The notes below the pieces were generated by a model. That model saw nothing but the letters and a program-made list of their open reading frames with translations, did not search any database and was not told where the DNA came from. Of a DNA stretch of 64,000 nt, positions 7,981 through 9,118 are shown piece by piece (the stretch's first letter is position 1; every line of letters starts with the position of its first letter). Both the position numbers and the translations under genes were made by a program. Source of the DNA: a virus; the UHGV virus genome UHGV-0092003; one strand, given 5' to 3'.

Positions 7981-8330
7981 GATAAATAAGTGTTTACTTA
8001 TCTATAAGTTTTCACTAAGATTAACTCGTTTTCGACGTTAAGCGACTTTGCGGTTTTTTAGAAACTGACCAACAAAGTAAATGCAAACGATGATGTAGTT
8101 CTGATGGCGGCTTAACAGCCTATAAGTCAGTGAGGTCTTCCGATTCCTCATTAACAAATTCGGCGCATTGTGGGTACCGAGATGTGATTAATAAATCGGA
8201 ATCTTAAAGAAGTGTTTTGGGTGATGGCCTTTTAGTTTGTCGATTAGCTGTGCATAGCGTCGGCGAGCAAAGTCTGGTGACTTAAAGGTTTATTCCGATG
8301 CCTGGTATGTGAAATGCAAATAGCATATTT

Positions 8331-8372
8331 GAGGCAGAGGATTGCGGGTTCGATTCCCGCGTCACTCTCCCA
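8331..8372 (+). pseudogene. tRNA 3'-half remnant (T-arm GCGGGTTCGATTCCCGC + acceptor-like + CCA)
   Basis: Canonical T-stem/loop GGTTCGATTCC followed by GTCACTC-T-CCCA. No convincing 5' half, D-arm or anticodon arm upstream. Confidence 0.3.
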
Positions 8373-8774
8373 CGTTTCAGCTGTTTGGGTGGTTAGGAGT
8401 ATTTTCATTAACCATGTCCCGGTTTCAGTAAGCAACTGACCGCCCAAACAGCTGCGTCGTGTGTGATTACTTAATGTCTCATTTCATCTTGGGTTAATTT
8501 GAAATTGCGACGCAGCGCCTTTCTCAAAGCGTGCAGAAGGTTTTGAGAAAGTGCGTGCTAACGATCGGACTTTCTTCTGCCATTGATAGACTCGTTTAGA
8601 GCTTGATATGTAGGCCATAGCCCAGCCGGAGGTGGCGAACACCGGCAGACTGAGATGTTAGTCGATTGAAGAGGTTTTATCATCGCCTCGATCTTAACTC
8701 CAGACCATCAAATATGCCTCCGCTGTTTGATGACAGGCTCAGTCCGTTTCCTCTTAACGATAAAAGAGGTGCAA

Positions 8775-8857
8775 GCAAACAAAGCAGTCTGGTTGACTGC
8801 GGCCGAGGAAGACGTCTTATCCGGCAGAGAGTGGTTCGATTCCGCTTGTTTGCGCCA
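8775..8857 (+). tRNA. tRNA-like gene (83 nt) with a ~14-nt anticodon loop instead of 7 nt; may be a pseudo-tRNA or a tRNA-like RNA
   Basis: Acceptor GCAAACA/TGTTTGC, D-stem GCAG/CTGC with a GG loop, T-arm AGTGG-TTCGATT-CCGCT, discriminator G and encoded CCA. The anticodon stem is GCCG/CGGC and encloses GGAAGACGTCTTAT, which contains the palindrome AAGACGTCTT. Confidence 0.4.
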
Positions 8858-9118
8858 ACCTAAAGGGTTTTTTCGAGAGTCCTTCAGATTGGATACCCAA
8901 TGCGACCTTGGGTAACTTATCTAAGATGATGTGATTCCATACATCACTTAGTGTCGAGGTCTAAATGGTGCGGCCATCAACCGCATAAACAGCCATTAGA
9001 CCCGAGCCACAAGCCTCGTCTGGCACTAACGTAAAGTGCAAGTGACGTGAAATTCAGGTTGTACGGCCAGAAGAGTAGCGTTGCGAACCATATAAATTAA
9101 ACTACAAAGAGAAAACAC

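Follow-up and report, generated by a model that had tools for sequence, protein, structure and literature searches.

We analyzed a 1.1-kb gene-free gap at positions 7981 to 9118 of a 64,000-nucleotide (nt) stretch of viral DNA, the Unified Human Gut Virome entry UHGV-0092003 (the window), in which an earlier prediction made from the sequence alone (the original prediction) had placed three copies of a tRNA-like element. The window is an SSU5-like phage-plasmid of Klebsiella pneumoniae: positions 7900 to 9200 were 100% identical to K. pneumoniae plasmid pMB7868_2 (NZ_CP103584.1, 111.6 kb), and the wider window was classed as SSU5-like because it is distantly related to Salmonella phage SSU5. 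The gap is bounded by a small open reading frame (ORF) that ends at 7980 and a gene that starts at 9119. An ATP-dependent DNA ligase gene (5858 to 7186) lies on its 5' side, and on its 3' side are genes for PhoH (9898 to 10728) and then a Tad2-like protein (10715 to 11260, + strand). The latter contains a Tad2-like (Thoeris anti-defence 2) domain (E = 4.5e-26), and the presence of this anti-defence domain near the gap makes it plausible that the region holds host-interaction genes. The five largest ORFs inside the gap had no Pfam match, and indels between relatives in the gap were not multiples of three and were thus frame-breaking; these two results ruled out a protein-coding explanation and bore out the earlier view that the gap is non-coding. 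It is probably a tRNA island in which several distinct structured RNA genes follow one another on the + strand, in the order promoter-like site, transfer-messenger RNA (tmRNA)-like messenger module (module A), 154-nt tRNA-like RNA (module B), long hairpin (module C), branched RNA (module D), 83-nt anticodon-less tRNA-like RNA (module E), and tRNA-Gln-like remnant (Table 1). The same gap in SSU5 contains module A plus a genuine tRNA-Asn. Modules A, B, D, and E are, as judged from the sequence changes described below, conserved structured RNAs.

Table 1. Features of the 7981 to 9118 gap, numbered by position in the window
Feature	Position	Strand	Content or support
Promoter-like site	7993-8021	+	TTTACT (7993-7998), 17-nt spacer, TAAGAT (8016-8021)
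tmRNA-like messenger module (module A)	8028-8204	+	Rfam RF04321, codon constraint, covarying pseudoknot
Tag reading frame (in module A)	8083-8115	+	GCA AAC GAT GAT GTA GTT CTG ATG GCG GCT TAA = ANDDVVLMAA-stop
H-type pseudoknot (in module A)	8130-8163	+	Stem 1 GUGAGG (8130-8135)/CCUCAU (8146-8151); stem 2 CCGA (8140-8143)/UCGG (8160-8163)
154-nt tRNA-like RNA (module B)	8219-8372	+	Fold z = -3.7, 11 compensated pairs, exact indel in plasmid L008
Long hairpin (module C)	8376-8456	+	CAGCUGUUUGGGUGGUUAG with CUGACCGCCCAAACAGCUG; inverted repeat
Branched structured RNA (module D)	8602-8774	+	RNAalifold, 5 haplotypes: 45 pairs, 6 with compensatory changes
83-nt tRNA-like RNA (module E)	8775-8857	+	Cloverleaf as minimum free energy structure, compensated pairs 3:77 and 28:51
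tRNA-Gln(CUG)-like deletion remnant	8894-8914	+	TACCCAA ... TTGGGTA; two acceptor strands remain

The original prediction held that one module with a T-arm, acceptor strand, and CCA was present three times, near 8331, 8605, and 8823, and that the first copy was only a 3' half. Such units are real at two of these sites. The sequence GGTTCGATTCC occurred exactly twice in the 64-kb window, at 8347 to 8357 and 8833 to 8843, both times on the + strand and in the gap, compared to 0.12 occurrences expected by chance. The 8605 site reads GGCAGACTGAGATGTTAGTCGATTG and has no GGTTCGA; it lies within module D and lacks a T-arm, and its supposed T-loop is not kept in relatives. A three-copy repeat family was thus ruled out, since an 11-nt T-loop core is all that is common and there is no T-arm at 8605. 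The first unit is not a half but a whole: a 5' acceptor strand, GGGTGAT (8219 to 8225), pairs with GTCACTC (8361 to 8367) to close the 154-nt unit that we call module B.

Module E has most of the build of a tRNA, as had been described for this copy. A 7-bp acceptor stem (GCAAACA/TGTTTGC in the DNA, GCAAACA/UGUUUGC in the RNA) is followed by AA, a D stem of 5 to 6 bp, a T-arm (AGUGG-UUCGAUU-CCGCU), and an encoded G-CCA, so that the acceptor stem, the GTTCRANYC-type T-loop, and the N-CCA end are all those of an elongator tRNA. At the anticodon position, a stem of 4 to 5 bp, GCCG(A)/(C)CGGC (28 to 31 with 48 to 51, plus 32:47), closes a 14-nt loop, GGAAGACGUCUUAU (16 nt if the A.C pair is left unpaired), and this loop holds the palindrome AAGACGTCTT at 8809 to 8818, again in keeping with what had been reported. 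An elongator tRNA has in this position a 5-bp stem whose 7-nt loop carries U33 and has a purine at 37, and it has U8 and A14; positions 8 and 9 were AA and position 14 was U in all four module E haplotypes that we found. The 14-nt loop and the substitution of A8-A9 and U14 for U8 and A14 indicate that module E is not an ordinary decoder. It also scored below the gathering threshold of the Rfam tRNA family (RF00005, 29 bits), and its best match in the Rfam tRNA clan was tRNA-Sec, with 23.7 bits (E = 0.06). ARAGORN did call an 83-nt tRNA-Phe (GAA) at the position of module E, but the sister haplotype was not called. The fold behind this call needs G33 for U33, a mismatched stem, and a 12-nt variable region, and it pairs position 28 with position 42; it is contradicted by the sister haplotype, in which position 28 would face C42 as A.C while the competing pair 28:51 changes from G-C to A-U.

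Scans of IMG/VR, metagenomes, and GTDB genomes, together with a covariance model, yielded only four module E haplotypes, all from Klebsiella SSU5-like plasmids; beyond these four, the covariance-model search returned only ordinary tRNAs, at 15 to 36 bits. The two main haplotypes differ at 15 of the 83 positions, 6 of which are in stems, and all six stem substitutions keep or improve pairing, with changes from A-U to G-C at 3:77, from G-C to A-U at 28:51, from U.G to U-A at 58:70, and from A.C to A-U at 32:47. The probability that six of six stem substitutions would be non-disruptive by chance is approximately 0.05 if only transitions are considered and 0.0005 if any base is allowed. Module E thus appears to be a maintained cloverleaf without a usable anticodon loop and not a decaying pseudogene. 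The nearest neighbors found by the module E covariance model were phage tRNA-Thr genes, which share with it A8-A9, a long D stem, the T-arm, and the CCA, and this suggests that module E may be descended from a phage tRNA. The proposal that the elements are tRNAs disrupted by small insertions may therefore describe the ancestry of module E, but not its present state. A tRNA-OTHER of Kuttervirus phage ST-W77 is also similar to it, with an anticodon loop of about 20 nt in the same kind of island, and scores 48.7 bits with RF00005. Module E differs from phage tRNAs in lacking both U33 and an anticodon loop of 7 nt, and its score is below the Rfam tRNA threshold. Decoding is retained by those phage tRNAs whose variant anticodon loops let them escape host nucleases.

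The loop palindrome is perfect in both main haplotypes, AAGACGTCTT in one and AGGCGCCT in the other, which are two symmetric transitions apart, and each version contains a 6-bp restriction-type site (GACGTC or GGCGCC). Such a palindrome could in principle allow loop-loop dimerization of module E. The case for this is weak because the window contains 46 perfect palindromes of 10 nt, so that a palindrome is not rare in itself, and because RNAalifold gave an alternative, non-palindromic 3-bp stem in the loop (AGG with UCU or CCU) that explains the same two changes. The same count weakens the palindrome as a statistically striking feature.

In module B, the acceptor stem (GGGUGAU/GUCACUC) encloses a compound arm whose closing helix is GGCCUUU/AAAGGUU, a second arm with the 16-mer GUGAAAUGCAAAUAGC (8309 to 8324), and a T-arm, GCGGG-UUCGAUU-CCCGC (8344 to 8360), and the RNA would end in an encoded U-CCCA. 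This fold was more stable than those of all 200 shuffled sequences. When module B was used as a BLAST query, its 3' third matched 111 phage records, mostly of Kuttervirus. A full homolog was found in Salmonella phage ST-W77 (L133 4411-4565), at the distal end of a 4.3-kb tRNA island, and a pattern scan located another beside tRNAs in a 310-kb jumbo-phage contig (L194). The sequences from these three lineages barely align, but their architecture is the same. The acceptor stem is GAGUGUG/CGCACUC in ST-W77 and CGGGCUG/CGGCUCG in L194, the helix that closes the compound arm is GACUUCC/GGAAGUU and GACUCCU/AGGGGUU, respectively, and the T stem, GCGGG/CCCGC in the window, is UCGGG/CCCGA and CCGGG/CCCGG. 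RNAalifold found compensatory changes in 11 pairs, and the 16-mer is invariant in all three lineages. The tail is U-CCCA in the window and ST-W77 and C-CCA in L194. The alanine identity pair of tmRNA, G3:U70, occurs in L194 alone; the window has G2.U71. In the Klebsiella oxytoca plasmid L008, the module B cassette is cleanly missing, from just before GGGTGAT to CACTCTCC, with collinear flanks. These comparisons show module B to be a conserved RNA with tRNA-type ends in which two long arms replace the D and anticodon arms. Compensatory changes thus keep the helices of both T-arm units in related genomes and both units fail the tests for an ordinary tRNA, which makes decoy or tRNA-like RNAs the best of the three interpretations that had been offered originally.

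The ST-W77 island (L133 401-4695) is almost gene-free. In addition to the module B homolog, it carries a messenger module with the tag ANDSEVLMAA, four tRNAs, the tRNA-OTHER with its loop of about 20 nt, and further unannotated T-arm/CCA units (at approximately 1440 to 1740).

The known RNAs that most resemble module B are species 1 RNA (rnaC) and species 2 RNA (rnaD) of phage T4, two small stable RNAs encoded where the T4 tRNA cluster ends, which are of similar size (about 140 to 155 nt). Module B has the features of a species 1-type RNA, that is, a length of 120 to 160 nt, an acceptor-like helix, a T-arm, two non-tRNA arms, and a location in a tRNA cluster. T4 rnaC is 139 nt long (L250 2909-3047) and lies at the end of the T4 tRNA cluster, and the ST-W77 homolog of module B is likewise distal. 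The rnaC fold (z = -4.6) follows the same outline, with a closing helix, a long compound arm, a 10-bp hairpin, and a T-arm, and the L194 homolog has exactly the same T-arm, CCGGGUUCGAAUCCCGG. Unlike module B, rnaC lacks the 16-mer and an encoded CCA. Beyond the T-arm there was no convincing alignment between the two, and MAFFT was confident in the T-arm and acceptor region only; we therefore claim a shared architecture and a shared genomic position, both of which are observed, and not homology. To our knowledge, the function of T4 species 1 RNA is still unexplained. Modules B and E are probably new members or variants of the poorly understood class of phage stable tRNA-like RNAs.

A second comparison is with mycobacteriophage DS6A, which encodes a frame-less, tRNA-like tmRNA derivative proposed to titrate SmpB (PMC4131195; PMC11915505). 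Like this RNA, which consists of the tRNA-like domain (TLD) only, module B has an acceptor stem and a T-arm and no usable tag frame; module B also keeps a motif similar to the resume site of tmRNA, and its L194 homolog has G3:U70. By its description, the DS6A RNA is little more than a TLD, whereas module B has about 110 nt of extra arms, and the alanine identity pair is not conserved in module B.

Module A lies beyond the coordinates covered by the original prediction, with its tag frame 130 nt upstream of the first T-arm unit. It has a nested stem on its 5' side, then the resume context UAAAU and the tag frame, and after these a helix-5-like stem, the H-type pseudoknot, and a hairpin with the conserved loop GAUGUGAUUAAUAAA. 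An E-value scan with Rfam gave a significant match to tmRNA_permuted (RF04321) at 7966 to 8115 (E = 6.8e-5); its 34.1 bits fall short of the gathering score, which is 47, and relatives reached up to 39.6 bits, also sub-threshold. The match is driven by GUAAAU GCA AAC GAU GAU GUA GUU CUG AUG GCG GCU UAA. The tag frame has no start codon or Shine-Dalgarno sequence and has an in-frame TAG 8 codons upstream. The loci that were fetched contained 18 distinct versions of the frame, all with 10 codons and a TAA, and the encoded peptides begin with ANDD/N, continue with hydrophobic residues, and end with AA or VA; the predicted variants include ANDDVVLMAA in the window, ANDDLMMVAA in D6/P1-like phages, ANDNxFLAVA in Felix/SUSP phages, and ANEDTYLAVA in SSU5. 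Variation in codons 1 to 3 was confined to third positions, synonymous variants were present at Ala1, Asn2, Asp3, Val5, Leu, Phe, Ala9, and Ala10 (GCA/GCT, AAC/AAT, GAT/GAC, and GCG/GCT/GCC), and the pN/pS ratio over the tag frames was 0.36. This pattern indicates that the frame is under peptide-level constraint, and an internal, peptide-conserved frame that starts with Ala and lacks initiation signals is what characterizes a tmRNA.

The pseudoknot that follows the frame covaries in both stems. Stem 1 occurs also as GCGGGG/CCCUGU, GCAAGG/CCUUGU, ACGGGG/CCCCGU, and UCAGGG/CCCUGA, and stem 2 as CCAG/CUGG, CCAA/UUGG, and GUCG/CGAC, with 98.4% of its positions paired and covariation at four of four pairs. 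Over a 31-sequence alignment, the module A structure was 81.8% paired, compared to no more than 47% when the partners were slid, and 12 pairs had changed on both sides; none of 500 shuffles reached the observed values. No clear equivalent of the tmRNA pseudoknot PK1 was found in module A, which has a nested stem upstream instead. Module A thus resembles tmRNA (ssrA, and the coding piece of two-piece tmRNAs; RF04321, RF01849-51) in its UAAAU|GCA AAC GAY context, its 10-codon ANDx...AA frame ending in UAA, the helix over the end of the frame, and the pseudoknot right after it, and its best Rfam matches were to tmRNA families. Unlike tmRNA, it scored below every gathering threshold and was ARAGORN-negative in 35 loci of the family. 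Compared to the E. coli ssrA tag, ANDENYALAA, the module A tags end in MAA, VAA, or AVA instead of LAA and, SSU5 apart, lack Tyr.

A query containing module A matched 727 phage records and 816 plasmid records, and sequence similar to this query was present in 656 of 5426 E. coli genomes, mostly on plasmids. The carriers include Ackermannviridae, Felixounavirus, Suspvirus, D6/P1-like phage-plasmids, Schitoviridae, and lambdoid prophages, in the last of which the module lies between Q and the holin gene. It is usually found inside phage tRNA clusters and is almost never annotated. The phage tmRNAs listed in the tmRNA surveys consulted are those of mycobacteriophages, Bacillus phage G, and the TLD-only DS6A, along with 79 unnamed phage sequences, and the 2025 update requires a CCA tail (PMC4131195, PMC11915505). 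These surveys (PMC4131195, PMC11915505) do not mention a tmRNA element of the module A type in Ackermannviridae, P1-like, or SSU5-like phages, and our literature searches did not turn one up either. As far as our searches can tell, a messenger-only tmRNA module has been undescribed so far, and it is the most novel part of the island.

We looked for a tRNA-like domain or a partner RNA that would complete module A as a tmRNA, in which the frame is joined to a tRNA-like domain with G3:U70 and CCA, either in the same RNA or through two paired pieces. Module A has no acceptor strand, T-arm, or CCA of its own, and an RNA start at GUUUUCG, as set by the promoter-like site, leaves no room for a 5' acceptor strand. 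No hidden tmRNA, permuted or standard, turned up around it: ARAGORN found none in the 35 family loci, all Rfam tmRNA models stayed below threshold at the module A loci, and the hairpins upstream and T-arms downstream of the module (in L030, L099, L002, Magnus, and ST-W77) had no consistent acceptor pairing, G3:U70, or CCA. The same ARAGORN scan did call true, often permuted, tmRNAs in marine viral contigs. No tmRNA was detected in the complete D6 genome by Rfam or ARAGORN, nor in the window by ARAGORN or a gathering-level Rfam search, and tblastn found no smpB in the window or in D6; host SmpB would be present. Pairing of module A with module B or with host tmRNA to form a two-piece RNA was rejected, as there was no conserved complementarity and the duplex energies were within those of shuffles. 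Module A was also ruled out as a captured host ssrA fragment or attP. Its similarity to E. coli ssrA was no better than that of shuffled controls, it is also present in lytic phages, and the E. coli genome matches do not reflect detection of chromosomal ssrA by the query, because they were mostly on plasmids and the sampled chromosomal match was in a prophage.

Several further observations concern module A and its surroundings. Bona fide tmRNA genes are present in IMG/VR contigs L013, L023, L026, L037, and L052, four of them circularly permuted (ARAGORN tmRNA*), and their resume context, UAAAU|GCAAACGA, is that of the enterobacterial phage module. A homing-type HNH endonuclease gene sits in the 5' part of the messenger module in L009 (NZ_CP084809.1, 438-944) and in H47 (NZ_CP057316.1), accompanied by a diverged duplicate flank with GCT for Ala1 instead of GCA, which looks like homing with co-conversion. 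A long helix of 16 to 20 bp, CACAACAGGUAAGAGCAUU with AGUGCUCUUUCCGUUGUG, is repeated in the flanks of module A in L001, L003 to L006, L030, and L062 (Magnus, D6, SUSP1, and prophages), and its copies enclose variable inserts, some of which bear T-arm hairpins. The resume site, the 16-mer of module B, and the inserts of the long helix all contain the motif UAAAUGCA. In phage D6 (L240, MF356679.1, 7145-7850), GenBank places the tRNAs on the + strand, whereas ARAGORN and Rfam place them on the - strand, which is the strand of the messenger module and the neighboring genes.

The promoter-like site upstream of module A would start the RNA near 8027 to 8029, at GUUUUCG. Its hexamers and 17-nt spacing are kept, with a diverged spacer, in the window, SSU5 (L242), and plasmid L011, which represent three SSU5-like lineages, and we infer that it is a promoter. 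It matches 8 of 12 consensus positions, which is why a simple scan leaves it out. Downstream of module B, module C is kept in all Klebsiella relatives, its SSU5 counterpart is a compensated stem, AACAGGAUGGGCGGUU with CUGACCGUCCAUCCUGUU, and its position matches that of the long helices that follow the messenger module in Magnus, D6, SUSP1, and prophages. The hairpins of module D include GAGG/CCUC, which varies to GAGA/UCUC and GGGG/CCCC, and CAUCAAAU.../...GUUUGAUG. At the site of the tRNA-Gln-like remnant, which the original prediction had not included, L007, L009, and L011 have a full 75-nt gene (ARAGORN tRNA-Gln; RF00005 35.8 bits, above gathering), and L008 and L010 have a different T-arm/CCA unit of about 130 nt. 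Relatives also carry an IS5 element/transposase or an HNH homing-endonuclease gene in the same gap. The island thus appears to be modular and in flux.

Taken together, these results are probably best read as a processed operon of non-decoding tRNA and tmRNA mimics. The island would be transcribed as one precursor from the conserved TTTACT-17-TAAGAT promoter; RNase P, 3' tRNA-processing enzymes, and CCA enzymes would cut out modules B and E as they do tRNAs, and module A, along with the hairpins in between, would be freed by the same cuts as stable small RNAs. Modules B and E would then act as tRNA mimics that occupy, without decoding, host proteins that recognize the tRNA body or the CCA end, for which tRNA-targeting defence nucleases, RNase R, SmpB, EF-Tu, and modification enzymes are candidates. 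Module A could serve as a phage-specific tag template for host trans-translation or as a competitor of it. We put forward this mode of action, with B and E mimicking the ligands of host factors and A feeding or competing with trans-translation, much more tentatively than the operon itself, as a possibility that we would sooner bet against than for. There is at least one precedent for phages that deploy pieces of tRNA and tmRNA against host nucleases, the AcrIIIA1-RNA complexes, which bind RNase R (PMC11662646); this is an analogy and not evidence for the window locus. Several findings weigh against the reading as an operon of mimics. The decoy function of B and E is argued from analogy only. 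Simple scans of the gap found no strong sigma-70 promoter and no + strand terminator. Module B is absent in at least one relative (L008) and hence dispensable there, its tail is U-CCCA instead of N-CCA, and its G.U pair is at 2:71 and not at 3:70. Module E is known from four haplotypes of one plasmid lineage, so the support from its covariation is modest (P of approximately 0.05 for transitions only). Decay of the island is visible at the tRNA-Gln-like remnant, and any single element may be a recent pseudogene.

For modules A and B, the main competing idea is a split tmRNA by which proteins are in fact tagged. Here, a tmRNA messenger piece that has been uncoupled from its tRNA-like domain would be linked in trans to an RNA of the acceptor type, for example module B, or to host tmRNA/SmpB, and would add phage-specified tags instead of ANDENYALAA to the products of stalled ribosomes, with altered protease targeting as a consequence; the anticodon-less RNAs would be part of the same takeover of the tRNA and ribosome-rescue machinery. 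The tag frame is tmRNA-like in that it starts with Ala, has no start codon, and keeps its length and peptide-level constraint, the pseudoknot follows it as in tmRNA, A and B are adjacent in the window and share an island and strand in Kuttervirus, and both module B and the resume site of A contain the motif AAAUGCAAA. The jumbo-phage homolog L194 adds G3:U70 and C-CCA, and two-piece tmRNAs as well as TLD-only phage tmRNAs are known (PMC11915505, PMC4131195). Module B, however, closes its own acceptor stem and is so independent of the 5' end of A, no conserved A-B pairing was found, and G3:U70 is absent from B in the window and in ST-W77. Many carriers of A, such as K. oxytoca L008, have no B, the complete D6 genome has no tmRNA detectable by Rfam or ARAGORN, neither the window nor D6 has an SmpB gene, and A neither pairs with nor resembles E. 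coli ssrA more than shuffled sequences do. The peptide-level conservation of A argues for its translation, and the lack of a demonstrable link to a chargeable tRNA-like domain argues against it; on balance we regard a split tmRNA as unlikely. Slightly less probable again is that modules B and E are insertion-disrupted, functionless tRNA pseudogenes that drift in a fast-evolving island. The flux of the island, in which B is lacking from one relative, a tRNA-Gln-like gene has been deleted in the window, and IS5 or HNH genes have been inserted, would fit such decay, as would the limitation of E to one lineage and its phage tRNA-Thr neighbors. Drift is hard to reconcile with two haplotype groups of E that differ at 15 of 83 positions and yet preserve or improve pairing at every substituted stem position, or with the 11 compensated pairs of B, whose architecture is kept across Klebsiella plasmids, Kuttervirus, and a jumbo phage.

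Two other explanations seem very improbable, to a similar degree. One is that module E is an ordinary decoding tRNA, either tRNA-Phe(GAA) or a tRNA with a short intron that is removed before use. The ARAGORN call described above would agree with this, and the PGAP locus tag RS27015 is absent from the protein-only table, so that PGAP apparently annotates one gene in the gap. The defects of the tRNA-Phe fold and its loss in the sister haplotype, the covariation of the competing stem, and the sub-threshold score with the Rfam tRNA model all speak against it, and the intron version is opposed by the fact that we know of no bacterial mechanism that would splice a 7-nt insert. The other is a DNA-level element, in which the T-arm repeats and the palindrome act as att-like recombination sites or protein-binding sites; att-like remnants were among the interpretations first proposed. 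Integration sites are commonly found at tRNA and tmRNA 3' ends (PMC4131195), and both E haplotypes keep a perfect palindrome with a restriction-type site. An att site of this kind would be a partial 3' copy of a tRNA or tmRNA, duplicated at the island borders beside an integrase. What we found was a repeat of no more than the 11-nt T-loop core, two complete units, including the one at 8331, no integrase within 3 kb of the gap, homologs in strictly lytic phages, and compensatory changes of the RNA-helix type that include G.U pairs, and palindromes of 10 nt are common.

Phage tRNA islands are usually annotated for canonical tRNAs only, and the gap shows that conserved, covarying RNAs which standard tools overlook or mislabel are present in them as well. 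The ARAGORN tRNA-Phe in the window and similar tRNA-OTHER calls in related phages should not be counted as decoding tRNAs. The presence of a T4 species 1-like RNA in phage-plasmids, Kuttervirus, and a jumbo phage provides comparative leverage on an unexplained stable RNA. tRNA look-alikes that lack an anticodon but end in CCA are natural candidates to soak up enzymes of tRNA-directed defence or processing as sponges, and a messenger module without a tRNA-like domain, present in hundreds of phage and plasmid records, would be a new way to use or subvert trans-translation if it is translated.

Three minor features of the window lie apart from these modules. A 50-nt block at 9003 to 9052, upstream of the gene at 9119, is 90 to 94% identical across SSU5 and many SSU5-like plasmids of Salmonella, Enterobacter, Citrobacter, and E. 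coli that have no other part of the gap in common, and it is possibly a conserved promoter or leader. The sole gathering-level Rfam match in the window was to STnc100, a gammaproteobacterial small RNA, at 28098 to 28294 (+ strand, 74.8 bits). A strong hairpin at 8915 to 8950, CUAAGAUGAUGU...ACAUCACUUAG, is kept in all Klebsiella relatives, and the GAUGUGAUU motif of the module A hairpin loop recurs in it.

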